Assembly (NCBI GenBank): GCA_963813075.1
Contig: CAWEXU010000011.1
Location: 1-13,444, forward strand
DNA from: Methanotrichaceae archaeon
GTDB lineage: Archaea > Halobacteriota > Methanosarcinia > Methanotrichales > Methanotrichaceae
Direction: 5' to 3'
DNA length: 13,444 nucleotides
Position numbers and translations under genes: made by a program
Notes under the pieces: model-generated
What the model saw: the letters and a program-made list of their open reading frames with translations, nothing else
What the model was told of the DNA's origin: nothing
Database searches by the model: none
Shown: piece by piece, positions 1 to 11,411 of the stretch
Numbering within the stretch: the first letter of the stretch is position 1
Layout: each line of letters begins with the position of its first letter

Positions 1-96
1 TATCTGCAGTGTGTAGGAAACAGCGCTTGCTGAAAGTGCAGAAAAAAAAATTACGGCAAACGCCATAGTAAGCAGAACACTCGCGTGCTTATTCAT
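1..96 (-). CDS. 5' fragment (runs off the window) of a substrate-binding protein paralogous to 404..1672
   Basis: Manual translation from ATG at 96 gives MNKHASVLLTMAFAVIFFSALSASAVSYTLQI, aligning with MNKHVSILLTVAVAAIFLTALSSNAVSYTLKI of the next gene. AGAGGA RBS lies 6 nt upstream. Confidence 0.85.
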   Translation of the reverse strand, partial: MNKHASVLLTMAFAVIFFSALSASAVSYTLQI

Positions 97-137
97 GATA
101 TTTCCTCTTTGCATGCCCAAGTGACAGATCTTATTGG

Positions 138-150
138 TATTAAAGTTTCC
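138..150 (-). promoter_or_regulatory. Putative BRE-TATA (GGAAAC-TTTAATA) for the left-edge SBP gene
   Basis: Purine-rich BRE then TATA-like box about 40 nt upstream of the ATG; conserved in the paralogous copy at 1715-1727. Confidence 0.6.
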
Positions 151-364
151 TATAATCGTATCAGTAAATGTTATAATTATAAAATCATTTATTAATTTAT
201 AGGCTCTATCAGATAACAATCATGCCATTAATGTCATTGTGAATCTTGAATAATTGCATGCGACTGTTCATATTTATATAATTAGAAATAAATGCAATTT
301 CAGATCGTGATCTTGGACTGCCATACGGAGCAGGACTGGCCTGCGCCAAAGAACAATACTAATA

Positions 365-397
365 GGGGAAAGACGATGAAGATCGCCATTTTTCCCC
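365..397 (-). terminator. Hairpin just downstream of the 404..1672 stop codon; possible terminator or 3' stabiliser
   Basis: GGGGAAA(365-371)/TTTCCCC(391-397) outer stem with inner CGAT-GAAG-ATCG. Confidence 0.4.
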
Positions 398-403
398 ATA
401 TAC

Positions 404-1672
404 TCATGCAGTCAACGGATAGGCCATAATGCATTTATTAACATCTATATCCAGATGCTGGAATTTGCTCACATACTCCTGATGGATCGCCTGCGCATCC
501 GTATCCGCAAAGAGATCTGGATAGAGCCACTTGGCGTAGTAAAGGGAGCACAATAATCCTGAAGCTCCGCCACATTTGAGGAACGCATGTGAGATCATGT
601 ACACTCTCTTATTCTTGACGGCATCCACAGTGGCAAGCTCGGGTTTCTGCAAGAATGTATTGATATATTCGGCCACTTCTTTTGAATCATGAGCATCATA
701 TCCTACCATTTGGTTAGTTGACAACAGTATTACCTGCGGGTTTCTTGAGACAATCCATTCCGCATCCACATCAACACTTATGCCTTTGATATCGATCTCA
801 TCATTGATGGGTATTCCTCCGGCATTTCTGACCTCTTGGCAGTAGTGATGTTTCTTAGATGGCGTCGAGTATTTGCTAGTGCTCACATCGGGTAAGCCTA
901 CGCAAACATAGACCGAAACTCTCTTGGACTCAGGAATGCTCTCCACTTTTTCACTGATCTTTTTTTCCTGGTCATTCATCCATGATACATACTCTTCTGC
1001 CTTAGAAACCTCGCCGAAGATATATCCATACCTCATGGTGGCTTCTTTGGGATTGGTTATGTTCACATCCAGTGCAATTGTTGGAAAGTCTGGCGTTTTT
1101 GTGGGATCATAGTATTCAAGATAATCCGTAATGATGAGATCCGGTTTGATGTTATTGATTACTTCATAGTTGATCGCTTGCAGACCACCTAGATTTTCGA
1201 CACTCAATAGCTCCGGGAAGTAAGTCTCGCTATACCTGCTTAAGCCAGGAGTAACATAATCACTATTGACACCGACAATCTTATTGGAGACTCCAATTGC
1301 TCTCAACGTCTCATAAACGAAGATATTATGCCCATGGTATACAAAGGAATCTATCGGTTCATCGACTCTAACAGTTCTACCCGCATCATCCTGGACAACA
1401 AGAAATTCTTCATCCCCTGCTATAATTTTTTTAATTTGCTCAATATCCTTTTCGTCCACAACATCGTCATTGTTAGCATCAGAGAACTCGGTTTTTTCCA
1501 CTTCGCCTTTGATCAATTTCTCCAGATAAGTTAAATCCTCATCGTTTATCGATTCATCCATATTCGCGTTTCCGTGGATTTTCAGCGTATACGAAACGGC
1601 GTTGGACGAAAGCGCTGTCAAAAAAATTGCAGCAACTGCTACAGTAAGCAGAATACTCACGTGCTTATTCAT
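404..1672 (-). CDS. ABC-type Fe-chelate/cobalamin-family (class III) substrate-binding protein with N-terminal dockerin-like domain
   Basis: Signal peptide; duplicated Ca-loop motif GNANMDESINDED...DANNDDVVDEKD; then DDAGRTVRV, NYEVINNIKPDLII, VDAEWIVSRNPQVI, AVKNKRVY, YAKWLYPDLF typical of Peripla_BP_2 proteins. ATG 1672 preferred over 1690 because AGAGGA lies 6 nt upstream. Confidence 0.9.
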   Translation of the reverse strand: MNKHVSILLTVAVAAIFLTALSSNAVSYTLKIHGNANMDESINDEDLTYLEKLIKGEVEKTEFSDANNDDVVDEKDIEQIKKIIAGDEEFLVVQDDAGRTVRVDEPIDSFVYHGHNIFVYETLRAIGVSNKIVGVNSDYVTPGLSRYSETYFPELLSVENLGGLQAINYEVINNIKPDLIITDYLEYYDPTKTPDFPTIALDVNITNPKEATMRYGYIFGEVSKAEEYVSWMNDQEKKISEKVESIPESKRVSVYVCVGLPDVSTSKYSTPSKKHHYCQEVRNAGGIPINDEIDIKGISVDVDAEWIVSRNPQVILLSTNQMVGYDAHDSKEVAEYINTFLQKPELATVDAVKNKRVYMISHAFLKCGGASGLLCSLYYAKWLYPDLFADTDAQAIHQEYVSKFQHLDIDVNKCIMAYPLTA

Positions 1673-1714
1673 AATCGTTCCTCTTTGCATGTCAAAAGTG
1701 ACAGATCTTATCGG

Positions 1715-1772
1715 TATTAAAGTTTTCTATATTTGTACTAATAAGTATTATAATTACCAAAAGTTTTATTAA
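1715..1772. promoter_or_regulatory. Divergent promoter region: minus-strand BRE-TATA (1715-1727) and plus-strand BRE-TATA CAAAAG-TTTTATTAA (1758-1772)
   Basis: Two back-to-back archaeal promoter-like boxes between divergent genes. The plus-strand 15-mer recurs exactly at 11580-11594. Confidence 0.65.
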
Positions 1773-1825
1773 TATGGGCATGCTCAGCAATTCATGTATC
1801 TATACATCAAATAGAGGAATCTAGA

Positions 1826-2540
1826 ATGCAAGAGAGCAAGATGGAATTGATGATGCAAGGCCACGAGATCTGGCTGGAAAAGTCCAAAGCGGAAGGCGAG
1901 GAATTAGAGTTGGCCCTTGTGTACGGCCACAATATGCGTCAAGATGGAATAGCAGACGCCAAGAGACTTAGAGCGTTCAACTATCATCCAGACGGCAGCA
2001 AATCGGATCTGAACCTCATCCCTGAGGAGACACGCTATCTCCTGAAGTTCACGGCGGATAAAGAAGGATCATATGCTATCGTAGTGGACATGGAATCGTC
2101 GATACTTTGCAAGACCAAGGACGGAAATAAGAGAGGCCCGCGTTCTCAGTTCAAGGATGTCACATATGCCGGGGCCTTCCACCAGATGGCCAAGATCCTT
2201 TGTCCCGTAGGCGGTGATGGAAAATACAGTGGCCAGGTTGTGCACGGCATCCTCGAGGCTGTCCCAATCATGCCTTGGTGCCAGGTAGGCCAGGAGGCTG
2301 AGCTGCAGGTATTCTATGAAGGAAAACCGCTGGCCTTTGCAGAAGTCAAGGCGGTATCCAAGAAAGAGGGGAACGGAGATGGCTCTGGTCAAGGCAGATG
2401 AGCAGGGCAAGGCGCGCATTCCTATAACCACGGATGGAGAATGGATGTTCCTGGTCAGGCATAAGGACCCTTCCAAGAAGGTCAACGATATGTTCGATGA
2501 ATCTGTCTTTGTCAGCACTCTGGTCATGGAAGCCAGATAG
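1826..2540 (+). pseudogene. DUF4198-family (Ni/Co uptake-associated) protein interrupted by a +1 frameshift at about 2368-2373
   Basis: GHEIWLE...YGH N-terminus, LEAVP, LQVFYEGKPLAFAEV, then in the shifted frame KADEQGKARIPITTDGEWMFLVRH. Span is 715 nt = 3x238+1; deleting one base in GAGGGGAACG gives a 237-aa ORF. Could be a sequencing error. Confidence 0.8.
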
Positions 2541-2738
2541 AAAGCGCATAATCTTCACAGGAAATGGCATTGCCACTATGATAATCTCTTTGGTATTCAC
2601 GGGAGTCGCAGGCATCTCATCTCCTTTTCTTATAGCGCGATAAAGCAGTAGCTTTAAGGCTAAGACTTAGGACTCAGGCTTAAGGATCATTGGGCTCAAC
2701 ATAGCCCATGCGCGTACCTTGGGGAAATAAGCTCAATC

Positions 2739-4500
2739 TCAGCTGCAGAACGATTGCGCCTCCACCAGCCGGGCATATCTCCCTTTCCGGGCGATGAGAT
2801 CCTCATGCCTTCCCTGCTCTACTACCCGTCCCTCATTTATGACGAAGATCCAGTCCGCATCCACTACAGTGCTCAGCCGGTGAGCGATCATGATGGTGGT
2901 GCGACCCTCTCTCCTTTCCATCAGAGCCTCTTTGATTGCCTTCTCGTTCTCTGCATCCAGGCTGGAGGTGGCCTCATCCAGGATGAGTATGGGCGCTCCC
3001 TTCAGGAGAGCTCTGGCGATGGCGATCCTCTGTCGCTCTCCGCCGCTGAGACGAACTCCCCTCTCTCCCACCAGGGTATCATACCCCTGGGGCAGGGTGG
3101 TTATAAAATCATGAATGCGGGCCCGGATAGCGACCTCTTCCACCTCGGCGTCGCTAGCTTCTGGCCAGCCTAACCGGATGTTCTCTCTGATGCTATCGCT
3201 GAAGAGGAAGACATCCTGAGAAACCACAGAAAACAAACGGCGCAACTCCTTCATGGGATAGCAGCGCAGATCACTTCCACCGAGCAATATTCTTCCCGCT
3301 TCCGGATCCCAAAAACGGAGCATCAGATTGATCACTGTGCTCTTTCCTGCTCCGCTCGTCCCCACCAGTGCCACTGTCGAGCCTGCGGGAATCTCCAGGC
3401 TGATGGAGCTTAAGATCAAAGGCTCATCCGGAGCATAGCGGAAGCTGACATCCTGCAGAGAAATGGATGGCTCTATGGATTCGATCGGAACTGCCGGACC
3501 CAGACCGGACTCGTCCCTTACCGCTGGCTGCTCATCCAATAGAAGAAAGAGTCTGCGAGCAGCAGCGCGGGTCAAAGAGAGCTGCTTGGAGATCTCCACC
3601 ACTGAGGTTATGGAGAGAAAGACGCTTGAGGCCAGGATCATGGTGATGGGAAGAAAGCCTGGCGCAAGGGAATTCTGCCTGACCAGGATGCTGGCACATA
3701 GGAGCACGGCAAGAGTCCCTGCAGAGACGATGCTGATGCTTCGCTGCGCTTTGCAGCCCGATGTTTCTCGCCTGCCTGGCCTGCAATGCCAGCAGTGTGG
3801 CAGAATTTTCAGATAGCTCTTCTAATCTTTGTCTGCTGTAGCCGAAAGACAGGATCTCCTTCATTCCCTGAATGGTATCCAGCACCTGGGAGTTGAGAAG
3901 TGCCTGCTGCCCTCTCAGCCTCTCCCCTAGAGTTGTGCCCAGCCAGAAAGCCAGCCTGGGCATGAGGATCAGCAGGATGAGAAATATGAGCAATGCCTCT
4001 GCCAAAAGCAGGTTGATGGTTGCCAGGGCGATGAGAGCGATGATGGGGACGATAAATGCTACTACCGCTGGTCCTGCAGTATGGGCGAAGAAGAGCTCCA
4101 GCAATTCTATGTCTGATACTGCTGTGCTGACCAGATCGCCCGTGCGCCTTCTGGCAAGCTTTGCCGGAGCGAGGGGCTCTATGGCCCAGAAGAACTCGTC
4201 CCTCAGGTCGACCAGGATGCGGAATGCGGCCACATGAGATAGATAAGGGCCTAAATAGCCAAAGGTCCCTCTGGCCAGGCCGAGGATGATCATGGCGGCA
4301 GCATAGGGATAAAGCTCCTCGATGGCCGTGCCGGCCACCGCCCGGGCGAAGAGAGCTGCACCAAGAACGGCAACGCCGATGCCCGAGACCTGTCTTAAGA
4401 TCTCGGATATGACGGCCAGGCTCATCAGTCCCAGATGAGGGCGAATAGGATAGATCAGCCGGCGCCAAACCGATCTGGAATCGAGAATGCCTCTTATCAT
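2739..4500 (-). pseudogene. Fused TMD-NBD ABC half-transporter (CydC/IrtB/YbtQ-like) with a +1 frameshift at about 3740-3741
   Basis: TMD in ORF 3532..4500 (HVAAFRILVDLR, RTGDLVS, DIELLELFFAHT) continues after GLQSAA in the other frame as SISIVSAGTLAVLLC into an NBD with GTSGAGKST, LSGGERQR, DEATSSLD, IAHRL. Span is 1762 nt = 3x587+1. Confidence 0.85.
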
Positions 4501-6308
4501 GGCTGTCCTCCCGCCACAGCGGCGAGATTGCTGCCAATTTTCATGGGGAGAGCATTCTCGTCATCCCTGCAATCTGGCATATCCAGGGACTGAGCCGCCA
4601 CCAGGTGGGCATAGATGCCTCCTTTAGCCAGCAGCTCCTCATGGCCGCCGGACTCGGCGATTCTCCCCATTTCCATGACTAAAATGCAGTCCGCCTTTCT
4701 GACTGTGCTCAGCCGATGGGCGATGATCATAACAGTGCGCTGGGCCTGCAGACGGCCGAGGGCCTTCTGGATGTCCTCTTCGTTCTCGGCATCGATGCTG
4801 GAGGTCGGCTCATCCAGGAGGAGAATCGGTGCCCCCTTGAGAAGGGCGCGGGCAATGGCGATTCTCTGCCGTTCTCCTCCGGAGAGAAGCACTCCCCTCT
4901 CGCCTATGATCGTCTGGTAGCCTTCAGGAAGCGCAACAATGAACTCATGAGCGTTGGCTGCTTTTGCTGCCCGGACGATCTCTTCATGGCTGGCCTTGGG
5001 ATTTCCCAAGCGCAGGTTATTCTCCACGGTATCATAGAATAGGTAGGACTCCTGAGCAACCAGAGCCATTTGGCTGCGCAGGAAATTGAGGGGCAAGCTG
5101 CGAATATCATGGCCCCCCAGGAGCACTCTGCCCTCTTGGGGATCGTGGAAGCGGAAGAGAAGATCGATGACTGTGCTCTTGCCAGTTCCTGTCGCCCCAA
5201 CCAAAGCCACAGTGCTGCCTGGCTTCACCTCAAATGAGATGTTATGCAAAACCGGCCTATCGCCGTGATAAGCGAAGTGAACCCCCTCAAACCTGATCTC
5301 CGGCTCAATAGCAGAAGGTGCTGTATCTTGGCCATCCCGGACCTCAGGCATCTGATCTAATAGCTCGAATATGGCGTTCGCGGTTCTTTTTCCCAGCAGG
5401 CTGTAGTGATGATATAAAAGCAGATGGCTGACGTGCTCGTAGAAGAGCGAGCCCAGCAAAAGGACCATGACCAGTTTGTCCATCGATAGGCTACCCTGGC
5501 TGAGGCGGAATGATGAGACGATCATGGTCAGGGAGTAGCCCAGAACTGGGACCACCTCGGAGACGAAACTGGCTCCGAAATAGAGCTGCAGGCTCTGCAC
5601 CAATGCCTTCTCCAGGTTCCTGGATCTTCTATGAAGCTCTTGCCCCCGGCGTTCTGTCTGGCTGAAGAGCTTGAGGGTGGTCAGTCCCTGCAGGCTCTCG
5701 GCAAAGTAAGCGGATAGCTCCCGGTACGTCTCCCATGCCCTTCTCCCCACCTTCCACTCCTCCAGATTGGTGAATATCAGCAGGGAAAGGGGGACCAGGG
5801 GGACAAAAGCCATAAGCATCAGGGCGGAGATCAGGTCTACATAGATGGCAAAGCCCAAAAAGAGGAGAACGGGCATAACCAGACAGAGAGCCATATAAGG
5901 AACATAAAGCCCCACGTAGGCCTCAAGCGCCTCCACTCCATCCAAGACCGTGGTGGCCAGGGCGCTTGTGTTGCGCATCTCGACGAAAGAGGGACCCAGA
6001 TCGAGAAGATGCTGATTGATCCTCTTTCGGACGCTGCTCTTGACCATGGCGGCGGAACGCTGGGCGGTGATATCTATGGAGGCCTCGGCAATGGCTCGCA
6101 GGCTTATGGCCGCCAGCATGCCTGAGAACAGATCCAGCATGGAGAGGAGAGTGCGACCATCATATATTCCCACGATGATCCTTCCCGCCAGGAAGAGGAG
6201 GGCGATGTTGGCAATAGATCCCATCAGGCCAGACAAGAAGGTGAGGGCGATCCAGCGCCTTGCACCAGGGGCGAACTTCAGAATCCGTTTGTCGATTAAG
6301 CCTTCCAT
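4497..6308 (-). CDS. Fused TMD-NBD ABC half-transporter (CydD/IrtA-TMD/YbtP-like)
   Basis: Multiple TM segments, Walker A GATGTGKST, LSGGERQR, DEPTSSID, IAHRL. AAGGAG RBS. ATGA stop/start overlap with the partner gene at 4497-4500. Confidence 0.92.
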   Translation of the reverse strand: MEGLIDKRILKFAPGARRWIALTFLSGLMGSIANIALLFLAGRIIVGIYDGRTLLSMLDLFSGMLAAISLRAIAEASIDITAQRSAAMVKSSVRKRINQHLLDLGPSFVEMRNTSALATTVLDGVEALEAYVGLYVPYMALCLVMPVLLFLGFAIYVDLISALMLMAFVPLVPLSLLIFTNLEEWKVGRRAWETYRELSAYFAESLQGLTTLKLFSQTERRGQELHRRSRNLEKALVQSLQLYFGASFVSEVVPVLGYSLTMIVSSFRLSQGSLSMDKLVMVLLLGSLFYEHVSHLLLYHHYSLLGKRTANAIFELLDQMPEVRDGQDTAPSAIEPEIRFEGVHFAYHGDRPVLHNISFEVKPGSTVALVGATGTGKSTVIDLLFRFHDPQEGRVLLGGHDIRSLPLNFLRSQMALVAQESYLFYDTVENNLRLGNPKASHEEIVRAAKAANAHEFIVALPEGYQTIIGERGVLLSGGERQRIAIARALLKGAPILLLDEPTSSIDAENEEDIQKALGRLQAQRTVMIIAHRLSTVRKADCILVMEMGRIAESGGHEELLAKGGIYAHLVAAQSLDMPDCRDDENALPMKIGSNLAAVAGGQP

Positions 6309-6344
6309 GTTCTCCTTCTTTTGCCGCAGCCCTTCTCCTGCGCC

Positions 6345-6389
6345 GTAAAATTAAATCCTGTCGTGTTACACTCGTTAATAAATCTGTCG
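6345..6389 (-). promoter_or_regulatory. Promoter of the ABC pair: TATA TTTATTAA (6375-6382) followed by palindrome GTAACA-N13-TTTTAC (6345-6369)
   Basis: Same TATA octamer as at 1765 and 11587. The spaced inverted repeat covers the expected transcription start. Confidence 0.55.
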
Positions 6390-6570
6390 TAGGAGATATT
6401 ATAAATTCATATTATTATCTTGCTTTGGAGGGTAAATGAAAATAAATTGGCTTCTGCTCGCTAGAGTTGGTAAGAGGGTATTCGTTTCCCATGGATTTTA
6501 TCCATTCAGACGCTGATCGAATACCCCCATATTCTCCATCCGCCTGCATTGGATGGCTCACGACATACGC

Positions 6571-6578
6571 TTTAAATA
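6571..6578 (+). promoter_or_regulatory. TATA box TTTAAATA, probably for the MC1 gene
   Basis: Methanogen-type TATA consensus about 65 nt upstream of the start codon. Confidence 0.5.
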
Positions 6579-6643
6579 GCACTTTGTGCAGAAAAGTTAA
6601 TATTATATCATCACTTCATCGATTCCTGTGTAGGTGGTATATT

Positions 6644-6916
6644 TTGAAAGAAAAGAGGAATTTCGCCCTCCGAGATGCTTCGGGCAATGAGGTTGGCATC
6701 TATACGGGAATGGCACCCAGGCAAGCAGCCCTCAAAGTGGCGAGCAGAGGAGTCAAGGATATAAGGCTGAGGGAAAGGGGCACAAAAAAGGTCCATATCT
6801 ATCAGGGCAACAGAAGAAAGGTCAAGAAGCCAAAGAACGCTCCTGCCTGGATGCCCGATAAGATCTGGAAGCCGACGGTAAAGAAGATTGGGATAGAGAA
6901 GCTGGAGAAGATCTGA
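6644..6916 (+). CDS. Non-histone chromosomal protein MC1
   Basis: KRNFALRD..GNE.G.YTG..PRQAALK.A.RG...IRLRERGTKKVH...PKN.PAWMP..I.KP.VKK is the MC1 signature. TTG at 6644 follows AGGTGG RBS; 90 aa. The ORF-track start at 6467 is overextended. Confidence 0.96.
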   Translation: MKEKRNFALRDASGNEVGIYTGMAPRQAALKVASRGVKDIRLRERGTKKVHIYQGNRRKVKKPKNAPAWMPDKIWKPTVKKIGIEKLEKI

Positions 6917-6943
6917 ACTCATCGTTACTCTGTCGGGGGCAGC

Positions 6944-6973
6944 GGCCAGCACATCTCCCGTGTTGGCCTTTTT
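6944..6973 (+). terminator. Hairpin plus T5 terminator of the MC1 gene
   Basis: GGCCAGCAC(6944-6952)/GTGTTGGCC(6960-6968) followed by TTTTT. Confidence 0.7.
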
Positions 6974-6998
6974 ATCTGCCTGAGTTCTCATCCTGTGC

Positions 6999-7032
6999 AG
7001 TAACAATTTTCTTATTTTGATTATGATTAAAT
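6999..7032 (+). promoter_or_regulatory. Conserved upstream element (operator/promoter), copy 1
   Basis: 28 of 34 positions identical, ungapped, to 9924-9957: AGTAACAwTTTTCTT-N7-TTATGATTAAAT. Confidence 0.7.
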
Positions 7033-7135
7033 TCTAATACAGGTTTGATTGATATGCCTACATGCGACCGCTATCTTCTCCTGCTTGCCGGATGGATCGC
7101 TTCGGCTGCAGGATGGAGGGCGGGGCAGAGGAAAG

Positions 7136-8428
7136 ATGGTGATGATACCCTTAAAAGCACTAATGCTGGCCTTTGCATTATTGATGCTCTCTGCATCGGG
7201 CAATGGCTATGTACTGCATATATTCGGCAATGCCAATCTCGACGATGATATCAATGACCAGGATTTAGCATATCTAGAGAGGATAATAGAGGGAACCGAA
7301 GAGCCGACATGGCTCTCTGATGCGGACAATAATGGAGAGATCGACGAATCAGACATCTCACTAGTGCAGAGCATCATCAACGGAACCCCTAGCGAGATCA
7401 CAATCGTTGATTCAGACAATAAGACAGTGACTGTAAAGCAGCCCCTGGAGAGGCTGGTCGTCTATACCCATCAGTGCGCTGAGATCCTCCAGCTCCTGGG
7501 AGCGGAGGAGAAGGTGGTGGGGGTCAGGGACACATTCGCTGAGCAGCCCAACAGGTTCCCGCGGTTGAGCAAGTACCAGAGCATAGGCAGTGGTGGAGAG
7601 CCCGATGTGGAGGCGGTCTTAAAGACCAATCCCGATGCCATCCTCGCTTATACCTGGTACCCATCTGAAGAGTCGCTGGACGATAAGCTTCCCCCAGAGG
7701 TTGAGGTCCTGCGATTCGATTGTGAGTGCAGCGGCCAGGGCCCCGACGACATGAGAGAGAGGGTCCGGTTGCTGGGAATCCTGATGGGTGCAAGGGATAG
7801 GGCAGAGGAGTATCTGCAGTGGCACGACGCCATCCTCGACCAGGTGGAGGATGAGGTCCGGAAGATCCCCCAGAATGAACGGGTGCGGGTATACCTGGAG
7901 AGCACGCCCGAGGGCGACCGGCCCATGAGTTCCCGAACGGCTATTGGCACCGGCCATGCAGCCCACAAGCTGGTGGAGATGGCAGGAGGTGTTAACATCG
8001 CTGCCGGCCGCCTTCCTGGATATGAGGATACAGCCTTCGAGTATGGCGAGATAGAGACTGAGTGGGTCCTCTCCCAGAATCCGGAGGTCATCGTAGGCCG
8101 GGCCATGGGCCCAGGGATCAGGCCTTATGAAAATGTCAATGACAGCCTCCTTGAAAGCTACGCCCAGGATATCAGGAGCCTGCCGGGATTCGATGAGGTC
8201 CGGGCCGTGAAGAACGATGGGATATACATCATAACCAATGACTATGCAATAACGCCCAACTACCCCTCTGCCGTCCTCCTTCTGGCCAGATGGTTCTATC
8301 CGGATCGATTCGCAGATATCGACCCCCAGGCGGCTCACCAGGAGTATGTGAATATGATGGGCTTGGACTATGATGTCCGAGAGAAGGGTGCGTTCTTCTT
8401 CTCTGAAGAGCAAGCAGAGGATCTATGA
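7136..8428 (+). CDS. Class III substrate-binding protein with N-terminal dockerin-like domain
   Basis: Signal peptide, GNANLDDDINDQD...DADNNGEIDESD, DSDNKTVTV..P.ERLV, PDVEAVLKTNPDAI, EWVLSQNPEVI, AVKND, LARWFYPDRF. AGAGGA at 7127-7132 supports a start at 7136, 7139 or 7142 rather than 7049. Confidence 0.9.
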   Translation: MVMIPLKALMLAFALLMLSASGNGYVLHIFGNANLDDDINDQDLAYLERIIEGTEEPTWLSDADNNGEIDESDISLVQSIINGTPSEITIVDSDNKTVTVKQPLERLVVYTHQCAEILQLLGAEEKVVGVRDTFAEQPNRFPRLSKYQSIGSGGEPDVEAVLKTNPDAILAYTWYPSEESLDDKLPPEVEVLRFDCECSGQGPDDMRERVRLLGILMGARDRAEEYLQWHDAILDQVEDEVRKIPQNERVRVYLESTPEGDRPMSSRTAIGTGHAAHKLVEMAGGVNIAAGRLPGYEDTAFEYGEIETEWVLSQNPEVIVGRAMGPGIRPYENVNDSLLESYAQDIRSLPGFDEVRAVKNDGIYIITNDYAITPNYPSAVLLLARWFYPDRFADIDPQAAHQEYVNMMGLDYDVREKGAFFFSEEQAEDL

Positions 8429-8486
8429 CATTTTTCAGCTGAGATTGATGAATTCGACAGCTACCATGAGAAAGGAGATGCTATAA

Positions 8487-9863
8487 TTGAGAGAAGATAA
8501 AATCTTTGTATTGGCGCTGGTTCTCCTCGCCAATATCATTCCCCTGTCATCGGGGTCAGGCTATGTACTCCATGTTTTTGGCAATGCCAATATGGACGGC
8601 ACAATCGACCAGGAGGATATAGCCACCCTCAGAGAGATCATCAGCAATAATATGAGTCCCACAGACCTGGCCGATGCCAACCTCGATGGCGAGGTTGATT
8701 TGCGGGATATAGCCCAGGTGGAGATGATCATCAATGGAACGGAGAAGGATCTGAGCCTTCTGGACGGGAACGATTTGCCCATCACCATCAATAAGCCAGT
8801 GGAGAGAATCGTGGTCGAATACCTGGACAATGCCGATCTGATGCAGATTCTCAAGAAGACGGATAAGGTAGTGGGGGTGGACCTGGCAGTGGCCAAATCC
8901 CCGGCGGAGTTTCCAGAGATGTCCAACCGGACGTGCGTGGGAGCCATGCACAAGGAACCGGACTATGAGAAGGTATTGAGTCTTGATCCCGATCTTCTCC
9001 TGGTATTCTCCAATGTCACCCAGGAGAAGAATAAGAACCTGCCTGGAGTGCCAGTGCTCTTTGCCGGCCTGTACTATCCCGACCTGCTCAAACCTGAGAC
9101 ATCTGCTTTCACCGATGCAGTGCGCAAGCTGGGCTATGTTCTTGACGCGCAACAGGATGCAGAAGAGTATATCCAATGGCATATGAATTCGCTCAATAGA
9201 CTGATTGAGACCACGGGAAGTATTCCTGATAGCGAGAGGCCGACGGTCCTGGTGGCCGCCTATCCCGAAGCTGATGAGAAGACCATCTTCACCTTTGCCC
9301 AGATAGATACCCTTACCAGCATGGTGGATCTGGCTGGCGGGAGGACGGTGGCGGCCGATCTGCCTGATTTTATGAAGTCCACCTATAGAATCGAGGTGGA
9401 CCCGGAGTGGGTCTTGCAAGAAGATCCGGATTATATCGTTTTGCTGGTTGTTGCCACCACTTACAGCGGATTGGTGTTGGATCCGCCCAGCGGCTATGAT
9501 GCCGATGATCCCACTGGAATGAAGGAGGCTCTGGAGGCCTTTATGAGCCGTCCGGAATATGCCAACCTCAAAGCGGTGCAGAACGGCGATGTCTACATAT
9601 TGAGCGGCAACCTCAGAAACGATGCCAGCAAAGGCCTTATTGGCGCAGCCTACCTGGCGCGGATATTCCATCCAGATGAGGCGGAGATGGATCCCGAGGA
9701 GCTGCATCAGGAGTACTTGCAGAGGTTCCTGGGGCTGGACTACGATTTGGATGAGCACGGAGTATTCATCTATCCGCCCCTGATCAAGGGCTCCGGAGAG
9801 CTGGAGGGGGTGCCGGATGGTTATTATGCTGCTGTATCCTATGAAGGGGCTGCCAAAGCCTGA
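8487..9863 (+). CDS. Class III substrate-binding protein with N-terminal dockerin-like domain
   Basis: TTG start after AAAGGAG; signal peptide; GNANMDGTIDQED...DANLDGEVDLRD; PVERIVV, PDYEKVLSLDPDLL, VDPEWVLQEDPDYI, AVQNGDVY. Confidence 0.9.
   Translation: MREDKIFVLALVLLANIIPLSSGSGYVLHVFGNANMDGTIDQEDIATLREIISNNMSPTDLADANLDGEVDLRDIAQVEMIINGTEKDLSLLDGNDLPITINKPVERIVVEYLDNADLMQILKKTDKVVGVDLAVAKSPAEFPEMSNRTCVGAMHKEPDYEKVLSLDPDLLLVFSNVTQEKNKNLPGVPVLFAGLYYPDLLKPETSAFTDAVRKLGYVLDAQQDAEEYIQWHMNSLNRLIETTGSIPDSERPTVLVAAYPEADEKTIFTFAQIDTLTSMVDLAGGRTVAADLPDFMKSTYRIEVDPEWVLQEDPDYIVLLVVATTYSGLVLDPPSGYDADDPTGMKEALEAFMSRPEYANLKAVQNGDVYILSGNLRNDASKGLIGAAYLARIFHPDEAEMDPEELHQEYLQRFLGLDYDLDEHGVFIYPPLIKGSGELEGVPDGYYAAVSYEGAAKA
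9688..9818 (+). repeat. 131-bp near-identical direct repeat; second copy at 11242-11372
   Basis: 5 mismatches in 131 bp by manual alignment, including a perfect 74-bp run (9702-9775 = 11256-11329). Confidence 0.95.
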
Positions 9864-9875
9864 GAAGAAAGAGTC

Positions 9876-9904
9876 GACAGGGCACAAGCCCTGTCCAAAT
9901 TTTT
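9876..9904 (+). terminator. Hairpin plus T-tract terminator after 8487..9863
   Basis: Perfect GACAGGGC-ACAA-GCCCTGTC stem-loop followed by CAAATTTTT. The same CAAATTTTT follows the next paralog at 11441. Confidence 0.7.
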
Positions 9905-9923
9905 ATCAATGCGGGCCAATTTT

Positions 9924-9957
9924 AGTAACATTTTTCTTTTGATAGTTATGATTAAAT
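9924..9957 (+). promoter_or_regulatory. Conserved upstream element (operator/promoter), copy 2
   Basis: 28/34 identity with 6999-7032; contains GTAACA-N13-AGTTAT and abuts a TTAAATA TATA-like box. Confidence 0.7.
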
Positions 9958-10064
9958 AGTAAAATATGCTGATAAGTATCATTGTGATAGAAAAAGGCTG
10001 CTTTTGATCGACCGATATGGTCTGCTCTGGCATGATCGAGCGGCCTGACATAAGGAGACTGGAA

Positions 10065-11411
10065 ATGAAGAGATGCTTAATAGCAGTGATTATGCTCTGC
10101 GGCCTTTTGGCGCAGGCATCGGCGGGAGACTATATCCTTCATATCTATGGCAACGCCAATATGGACGGGACCATAGATATGAAGGACATAGAATATCTCC
10201 AGGAGATAATAGCAGGATCGGTTAATGCTTCTCCCCTGGCAGATGCCAATTTCGACGGTAAGGTTGATGAAAATGACATATCCCAGGTGGAGATGATCAT
10301 CAATGATTCTCAAGAGAATATCACCATACTTGACGGAAATGGAAAGCCGGTGACGGTAAGGCTGCCCGTGGAAAGGGCCATCGTCGAGCACCTGGACAAT
10401 TCAGAGATGATGATGATCTTGAAACGGACGGATAAGGTGGCGGGTGTGGATCTGGCCATGTCCAAATCAGAGAAGGAGTTTCCCGATCTGGTCAAAAAGA
10501 CAAGCGTATCCGGCTTCTCTCCAGCCACAGATCCCGACTACGAGCAGGCTTTGAGTTTGAGCCCCGACCTCCTCCTCACCTTCTCCAACAAGACCGCAGA
10601 GAAGGAAGAGAAGATGCCAGAAGTGCCTGTTGTCTTTGCCGGACTATACTATCCTAACCTGATCAATCCAGAGAATTCCTCCTTTACCGATGCCGTGCAT
10701 AAGCTGGGGTATATCATGCAGGCGAGAGAGCAAGCAGAGGAGTACATCGATTGGCATATCAGCAAGATCGATGAGATCAAGTCATACACCGAGAATCTAG
10801 CCGAGGAAAAGAGGCCTAGAGTGCTCATAGCCACCCTGCCAAAAGAGGGAGATAATTCGATATTCACCTATGCAAAGATCGATACCTTAAGCCAGATGGT
10901 TACTTTGGCCGGAGGCAGAAGCATCGCCGAAGATCTGCCCGCCTACCTGGAATCAAGCTACAGAATCGAGGTGGACCCCGAATGGGTCATTAAGAGCGAT
11001 CCCGATTATATGATATTCATCACTATTGTTCTCACTCCGCCAATAGGATACGACTCTGATGACATCTCAGGCATTTCTCAAGCACTTTTATCATTCAAGA
11101 GCCGCCCGGAGTATGCCAATCTCACAGCGGTCAAGAACAACCAGGTCTACATCATCAACGGTAACCTGAGAAACGATGCCAGCAAAGGGCTTATAGGGGC
11201 TGCCTATCTGGCGCGGATCTTTCATTCTGACAATGTAGATCTGGATCCCGAGGATCTGCATCAGGAGTACTTGCAGAGGTTCCTGGGGCTGGACTACGAT
11301 TTGGATGAGCACGGAGTATTCATCTATCCACCCCTGATCAATGGCCCCGGAAAGCTGGAGGGGGTGCCGGATAGCTTCTATGCAAATGATTCTGAGGCAA
11401 GAGCTCAATGA
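10065..11411 (+). CDS. Class III substrate-binding protein with N-terminal dockerin-like domain; close paralog of 8487..9863
   Basis: ATG 10065 after AAGGAG; signal MKRCLIAVIMLCGLLAQASA; GNANMDGTIDMKD...DANFDGKVDEND; shares long motifs (GLYYP, IDTL, GNLRNDASKGLIGAAYLARIFH) with the upstream gene. Confidence 0.9.
   Translation: MKRCLIAVIMLCGLLAQASAGDYILHIYGNANMDGTIDMKDIEYLQEIIAGSVNASPLADANFDGKVDENDISQVEMIINDSQENITILDGNGKPVTVRLPVERAIVEHLDNSEMMMILKRTDKVAGVDLAMSKSEKEFPDLVKKTSVSGFSPATDPDYEQALSLSPDLLLTFSNKTAEKEEKMPEVPVVFAGLYYPNLINPENSSFTDAVHKLGYIMQAREQAEEYIDWHISKIDEIKSYTENLAEEKRPRVLIATLPKEGDNSIFTYAKIDTLSQMVTLAGGRSIAEDLPAYLESSYRIEVDPEWVIKSDPDYMIFITIVLTPPIGYDSDDISGISQALLSFKSRPEYANLTAVKNNQVYIINGNLRNDASKGLIGAAYLARIFHSDNVDLDPEDLHQEYLQRFLGLDYDLDEHGVFIYPPLINGPGKLEGVPDSFYANDSEARAQ

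Follow-up and report, generated by a model that had tools for sequence, protein, structure and literature searches.

Dockerin-like modules on class III binding proteins of Methanotrichaceae lack a conserved cohesin-recognition face and are likely non-docking

Receptors that join a dockerin to a binding domain are already known in archaea: dockerin-bearing NikA/OppA and TroA receptors have been described together with scaffoldin-like proteins in anaerobic methanotrophic archaea (ANME) (Chadwick et al., 2022, PMC9012536), and both also appear in sections of PMC5244752. The same fusion of a dockerin with a TroA-superfamily (class III) binding domain is encoded in the 13,444-nucleotide Methanotrichaceae stretch analysed here (hereafter the window), so the fusion itself is published. 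The binding domains of the window receptors are 51–55% identical to those of relatives in a hydrophobic class, defined below, that includes named ANME-1, ANME-2c and ANME-3 records; however, ANME-type genomes hold many cohesins, often beside the receptor arrays, and dockerins with near-identical hydrophobic recognition faces, whereas the family of the window has neither. The section of Chadwick et al. on ANME dockerins does not discuss Methanothrix, three Methanothrix locus-tag prefixes were unmatched in its S4 Data, and in those data one Methanosarcina acetivorans protein that has TroA-like domains is grouped with the dockerin/cohesin proteins (PMC9012536). We found that the modules in the window lack a conserved cohesin-recognition face, which makes them likely to be non-docking, presumably calcium-stabilised structural appendages, and not tethers, on predicted secreted class III receptors. 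Our literature search found nothing on Methanothrix dockerin receptors, on two surface classes of module or on the S-layer mini-cohesin introduced below; the work of Peer et al. (2009) on non-cellulosomal cohesins and dockerins may bear on them. It reportedly noted dockerins in cohesin-less genomes, and orphan dockerin modules as such are probably already known.

As a preliminary description had stated, the window holds four complete genes for dockerin-like class III binding proteins and the start of a fifth:

404 to 1672, minus strand: gene A, 422 amino acids; signal, dockerin-like module (Pfam match 1421–1564), class III binding domain
7136 to 8428, plus strand: gene B, 430 amino acids; signal, dockerin-like module (7235–7378), class III binding domain
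8487 to 9863, plus strand: gene C (TTG start), 458 amino acids; signal, dockerin-like module (8589–8732), class III binding domain
10065 to 11411, plus strand: gene D, 448 amino acids; signal, dockerin-like module (10155–10301), class III binding domain
1 to 96, minus strand: 5′ end of the fifth binding-protein gene, 32 codons of signal region, cut off by the end of the contig ahead of the first calcium loop

Genes A–D are mutually 28–58% identical, with C and D at 58%. All four matched PF01497 at 71–97 bits, well above its cut-off; Dockerin_1 (PF00404) reached 18.1–21.6 bits by hmmscan and slightly missed its cut-off of 22.9, and in a six-frame genome search it passed in all four genes, in one of them only together with in-frame neighbours. 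A profile of 31 modules searched against the PDB returned cellulosomal dockerins at the top (1daq, E 7.7e-5). The AlphaFold2 model of gene D, built on 79 rows (predicted local distance difference test score, pLDDT, 94.6; predicted template-modelling score, pTM, 0.93), showed two loop-helix units (helices 18–29 and 48–58, pLDDT 94–99) ahead of the class III fold. Together, these matches indicate that the module is a dockerin homologue, as had been proposed. It shares with type I cellulosomal dockerins (Clostridium thermocellum CelS, 1daq/2mte) the duplicated loop-helix, as predicted, and the ligand positions 1, 3, 5, 9 and 12, but differs from them in having Asn at position 1 of loop one, no conserved residues at positions 10/11/17/18 and no scaffoldin, and in being N-terminal and joined straight to the first hairpin of the receptor. 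Of the loop motif first described, the duplicated calcium loop was thus confirmed, but not the Asp at the start of the first loop, which is Asn in all four; this loop reads G-N-A-N-x-D in every window module and is 97–100% conserved in 123 homologues.

The binding domain of gene D matched the class III fold at Z 30.9 (root-mean-square deviation, rmsd, 3.0 over 321 residues). In searches with the full receptor the lists were filled by the binding domain, the module lying within the full-length query, and solved class III chains match only from residue 58–66 onward, leaving the module uncovered. The class III (cluster A) proteins YiuA, Veillonella FepB and TM0189 share the fold and PF01497, but at ~20% identity to a window receptor their substrates are not transferable. 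Covariation in 328 polar-class sequences (effective number 187) gave intradomain top pairs, with L24–V54 linking the two helices of the module, whereas module–receptor pairs were near noise (best F42–T66, rank 23). In the ESM Atlas the best feature score was 0.83, for dockerin clusters, which we take only as a lead. Other class III receptors (L017:7978-9168, L019:1977-3194, L184 and L211) bear an N-terminal module of another kind, with helices and one G-D-x-D/N-G-D calcium-loop motif.

The recognition surface was then compared among modules. Sections of PMC6780208 give dockerin recognition positions as 10, 11, 17, 18 and 22 and calcium ligands as 1, 3, 5, 9 and 12; the face scored here comprised positions 10, 11, 14, 17, 18 and 21 of both repeats (12 in all), 14 and 21 being added as helix positions. 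The sampled loci gave 133 module hits, of which 10 were dropped as partial or lacking an in-frame binding domain, leaving 123. These fell into two classes: all 46 modules from six cohesin-rich genomes had hydrophobic residues at 5–8 of the 12 positions (hydrophobic class), and each of the 77 from 14 genomes with no Pfam cohesin, the genome of the window included, had 0–3 (polar class); several of these 14 carry the S-layer mini-cohesin. At positions 10, 11, 17 and 18, identity between paralogues was 0.72–1.0 in the cohesin-rich genomes vs 0.12–0.38 in ten others, with 0.20 in both G000, the genome holding the window, and G049, a closely matching genome, and the hydrophobic share was 38–62% vs 8–10% in G000 and G049. 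Binding-domain identity was comparable between the two sets (0.37–0.40 in cohesin-rich genomes vs 0.26–0.37 in the others). Calcium-ligand positions, by comparison, were 0.80–0.98 identical within the polar class (0.85–0.86 in G000 and G049) and carry D/N in nearly all of its 77 modules (91–100%, counting the top residue or D+N). Among named records, all 85 modules from Methanothrix, Methanosaeta or Methanotrichaceae belong to the polar class. Furthermore, in ten additional records for which the prediction was fixed in advance, cohesins accompanied the hydrophobic class in five of five (2–50 matches) and the polar class in one of five above cut-off (one match), with one more below cut-off. Charge complementarity was given little weight, because a net charge of -2 was also found for the hydrophobic faces of the ANME-2 type.

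The distribution of modules and cohesins was surveyed in parallel. In a PF00404 census at E ≤0.05, in which the binding domain was not confirmed match by match, 44 of 81 family genomes had matches, up to 37 per genome; all six in G000 and all ten in G049 lie on binding proteins. Across the phylum, the module profile matched 19 of 201 genomes. The cohesin model PF00963 matched none of 35 genus genomes and nine of the 81 family genomes, four of them above cut-off, and those four had no PF00404 match. An archaeal cohesin profile, built from 55 cohesins of genomes bearing dockerin-receptors, matched three of the 81, each time a single S-layer domain. Neither model matched in G049 despite its 10 modules, and with these two profiles no multi-cohesin scaffoldin was found in any of the 81 family genomes. 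The archaeal profile likewise matched no cohesin in 15 related array neighbourhoods, in contig C2 or in the window, as the preliminary description had noted for the latter. The same searches in ten of the 13 module-bearing genomes outside the family (three with weak partial hits were omitted) found 5–24 cohesins in seven, often adjoining arrays, and none in three. With no scaffoldin found in the family, and recognition positions that are polar and differ between paralogues, this organism is unlikely to have the cellulosome-like scaffold first suggested.

In other archaea, multi-cohesin genes do adjoin related receptors. At L124, L128, L132 and L134 they encode up to four cohesin domains and are found immediately upstream of arrays whose receptors bear near-identical dockerins of the hydrophobic class; these are ready positive-control pairs.

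The module class appears to follow the cohesin status of the host and not the ancestry of the receptor, which is new here. A tree of 136 binding domains, built with FastTree (159 sequences before redundancy filtering), showed 30 changes of class, 19 of them forced by well-supported branches, against a mean of 45 with shuffled labels. Supportively, receptor pairs of opposite class were up to 77% identical in the binding domain but just 43–57% in the module, and the sister of gene A is a hydrophobic-class receptor. The dockerin tree separated the two classes with one change; this is partly circular, the labels coming from the same columns, and position 4 of loop one alone is independent. This position, which played no part in the labelling, holds M or L in 88 of 90 polar-class modules, and 68 of 69 hydrophobic-class modules have E or Q there. 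The simplest reading of these comparisons, which use unrooted trees from FastTree only, is that two module classes may have been exchanged to match the host, by loss or gain of docking.

Several observations weigh against a non-docking module. The 12 polar-type modules of G050 are 0.66 identical at the recognition positions, and G300, a polar-type record, encodes a stand-alone anchored cohesin. The polar class does not look like plain decay: because position 4 is so uniformly M/L, it seems to be under a constraint of its own, which could be a partner. Profile searches may overlook remote cohesins, and G000 and G049 do encode an S-layer protein with an anchor-like tail and a domain that, by its predicted structure, has a cohesin fold, although docking on it is hypothetical. 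Finally, the genomes are kin and not independent, so that the pattern is one over a handful of lineages and not a statistic. A Bathyarchaeota record with a polar-class receptor module encodes a stand-alone 218-amino-acid cohesin with a C-terminal PEF-type tail (L236:1369-2025), with no dockerin among the long open reading frames within 1.5 kb.

Retention of the receptors was considered next. The four complete window receptors have neither a lipobox (0 of 4) nor a C-terminal anchor (C-terminal hydropathy ≤0.65), in agreement with the preliminary description. The proposal that the dockerin replaces this anchor did not hold, on two counts. Dockerin-less receptors are also anchorless: among 29 receptors without a module, three of them truncated or masked, one had a lipobox-like motif and 28 had none, against one of 131 with a module, in that case upstream of the start, and none of 160 family receptors in the sampled loci had a C-terminal helix. 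The lack of an anchor therefore appears to be a family trait. Relatives with a predicted N-terminal membrane anchor carry the same module: receptors named Methanomethylicia, Methanomassiliicoccales and Methanomethylophilaceae have polar-class modules behind long hydrophobic N-termini. Tandem fusions even carry one module per receptor unit. Such fusions were observed in P0121, P0122 and P0241, which have a hydrophobic N-terminus followed by two or three dockerin–receptor units, the P0121 cluster being named Methanomethylophilaceae/Thermoplasmata.

Following up weak cohesin matches led to a 110-residue domain, the mini-cohesin (G000:C10:50890-51219), at the C-terminus of a PF07752 S-layer-family protein, ahead of an anchor-like tail:

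G000:C10:48394-51321 (L011:4395-7322): S-layer-family protein with the cohesin-fold domain, frameshifted in the G000 assembly

The G049 copy (L102) has an intact 997-amino-acid frame. The domain has two conserved cysteines, is present once per genome in G000 and G049, and was found in 58 of the 81 family genomes. It shares the fold of the Archaeoglobus fulgidus cohesin (2xdh, Z 12.2) but differs from it in its 110 residues, its two conserved cysteines, its place behind PF07752 domains and its single copy, mostly below the Pfam cut-off. The preliminary idea of a cohesin-bearing surface protein encoded elsewhere thus holds in form, as an anchored single cohesin-fold domain and not of the multi-cohesin type, but the presence of this domain does not track the modules.

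That the modules dock on this mini-cohesin, at the membrane-proximal end of the PF07752 protein, with the S-layer as the scaffold, is a doubtful alternative; in its boldest form the recognition code would be unlike that of any solved pair, and receptors moving between archaea would exchange their N-terminal plug for one suited to the surface of the new host, a combination that we also think improbable. The domain does align with archaeal cohesins at 97.5% probability, cohesins are the best matches to its predicted structure (Z 14.5, rmsd 2.1 over 111 residues), it precedes the anchor-like tail, and in G000 the archaeal cohesin profile hits it best (E 0.055). However, the two do not track each other: of the 81 genomes, 26 have both, 18 dockerins only, 32 the mini-cohesin only and five neither, that is, the mini-cohesin occurs in 32 of 37 dockerin-less genomes and was not found in 18 of 44 dockerin-bearing ones. 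An intact S-layer orthologue without the mini-cohesin was seen in four genomes that retain modules: G031 (one contig, 99% complete; 4 modules), G006 (2), G013 (3) and G009 (11). Paralogous modules share no recognition residues (identity 0.20), and solved cohesins are ~30 residues longer than the domain. Both partners are also net acidic (-13 or -9 vs about -11), a weak point, since partnered archaeal cohesins are acidic too.

A polar-class module might instead bind a target other than a cohesin, such as a basic surface of the S-layer, the sheath or a permease, glycans bridged by calcium, or further copies of the module, and so help retention. The up to 37 copies kept in a genome, the class-specific M/L at loop position 4 and a module net charge near -10 would fit such a role, and the pTM of 0.93 suggests that the module may hold a fixed position on the receptor; yet the known recognition positions form no conserved exposed patch, no secreted neighbour recurs among the matches listed around the sampled arrays, and dockerin-less receptors do without the module, so that we regard this as quite unlikely. 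An uncleaved N-terminal signal anchor could also hold the receptors, the module being irrelevant to retention, which would be compatible with a structural role. Hydrophobic N-termini do precede the same module in other archaeal groups (best 19-residue hydropathy 2.5–3.5 in 11 of 12 examined), but the four window signals are weaker (1.8–2.3) and, as judged by eye and hydropathy, end in small-residue motifs just ahead of the module, as is typical of cleaved Sec signals, which makes retention by the signal very unlikely here. The structural, non-docking appendage therefore remains the likely reading, as the module lacks a conserved recognition face.

Under this structural reading, the receptors would be exported, with the signal probably cleaved, and would remain soluble between the membrane and the S-layer or sheath, as the dockerin-less receptors of the family would. 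There they may capture metal chelates or corrinoid/tetrapyrrole-type ligands and pass them to a small shared set of FecCD/ATPase importers whose genes lie outside the window. In keeping with the interchangeable receptors first envisaged, PF01497 matches outnumber full-length FecCD permeases by 29 to 6 in G049 and by 31 to 4 in G045. No FecCD permease or ATPase gene was found in the window, and the FecCD genes of G049 lie elsewhere. Related arrays are flanked by genes for CobN-like chelatases, FecCD and methyltransferases, a setting that hints at salvage of metal chelates or tetrapyrroles; no NCBIfam model matched the window receptors at cut-off. One receptor array adjoins a CobN-like chelatase gene (L027:14229-18556); by eye, its neighbours resemble what we take to be a nifH-like ATPase and two nifD/K-like partners. 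Methanothrix cells are described as enclosed by a protein sheath in a section of PMC11576556, and part of an extracellular polymeric substance (EPS) proteome lists Methanosaeta concilii binding proteins with cytoplasmic enzymes, so that no localisation follows from it (PMC6367495).

The window is the whole of contig C11 of G000, which is 82.8% complete. It is 98.9% identical over 10.7 kb, trpS included, to G049 (C1:1800035-1810737; 99% complete, 2 contigs), whereas G000 has a second trpS (C5:34873-36698) at 88% with the gene order of G049, and a core gene on C10 is just 90% identical to G049. The contig is therefore probably mis-binned, as judged from these identities, and G049 is the likely host of the window and the better genome for testing; both were used. 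The same doubling of trpS was seen in G080. Homologues carry the names Methanothrix, Methanosaeta and Methanotrichaceae, and the 90% cluster of gene D includes Methanothrix soehngenii proteins. The match to G049 ends at window position 2752, from which the left receptor group appears to vary among strains.

The genes described as one array over 1–11411 are all present but form two divergent groups, separated by an MC1 gene and the following:

1826 to 2530, plus strand: DUF4198 gene (PF10670, 71 bits), frameshifted in the assembly
2739 to 6308, minus strand: cydD/cydC-like ABC exporter pair, the second gene split by a frameshift

The cydD/cydC-like pair does not serve these receptors as their importer. 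A single extra base at 2368 (DUF4198) and at 3738 (cydC-like) is absent from the contigs of all four runs, probably DNA, and therefore reflects either an error of assembly or a lesion specific to the strain; the C10 S-layer gene was almost uncovered in the same runs. Repeats were also observed among the receptor genes. The start of the fifth gene (2–120) is 77% identical to that of gene A (1578–1696), within a duplicated upstream and signal region (2–196 vs 1578–1773, 77–82%), and a 3′ block of genes C and D (9540–9829 vs 11094–11383) is 85% identical. Upstream of genes B and D lies a 39-base AT-rich motif (6999–7037 and 9924–9962, 79% identical), which may be a promoter or operator common to both.

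Where a dockerin is annotated, a scaffold is often assumed. In the ten records for which the prediction was fixed in advance, a dozen surface positions predicted scaffoldin status (five of five vs one of five), which would give a simple means of telling docking from non-docking modules in archaea. The receptor subfamilies common to hosts with and without scaffoldins point to repeated module exchange, and to our knowledge Methanotrichaceae, unlike ANME, includes cultured species. The matched receptor pairs, up to 77% identical and bearing opposite module types, may thus offer a handle on the function of cohesin and dockerin in archaea.

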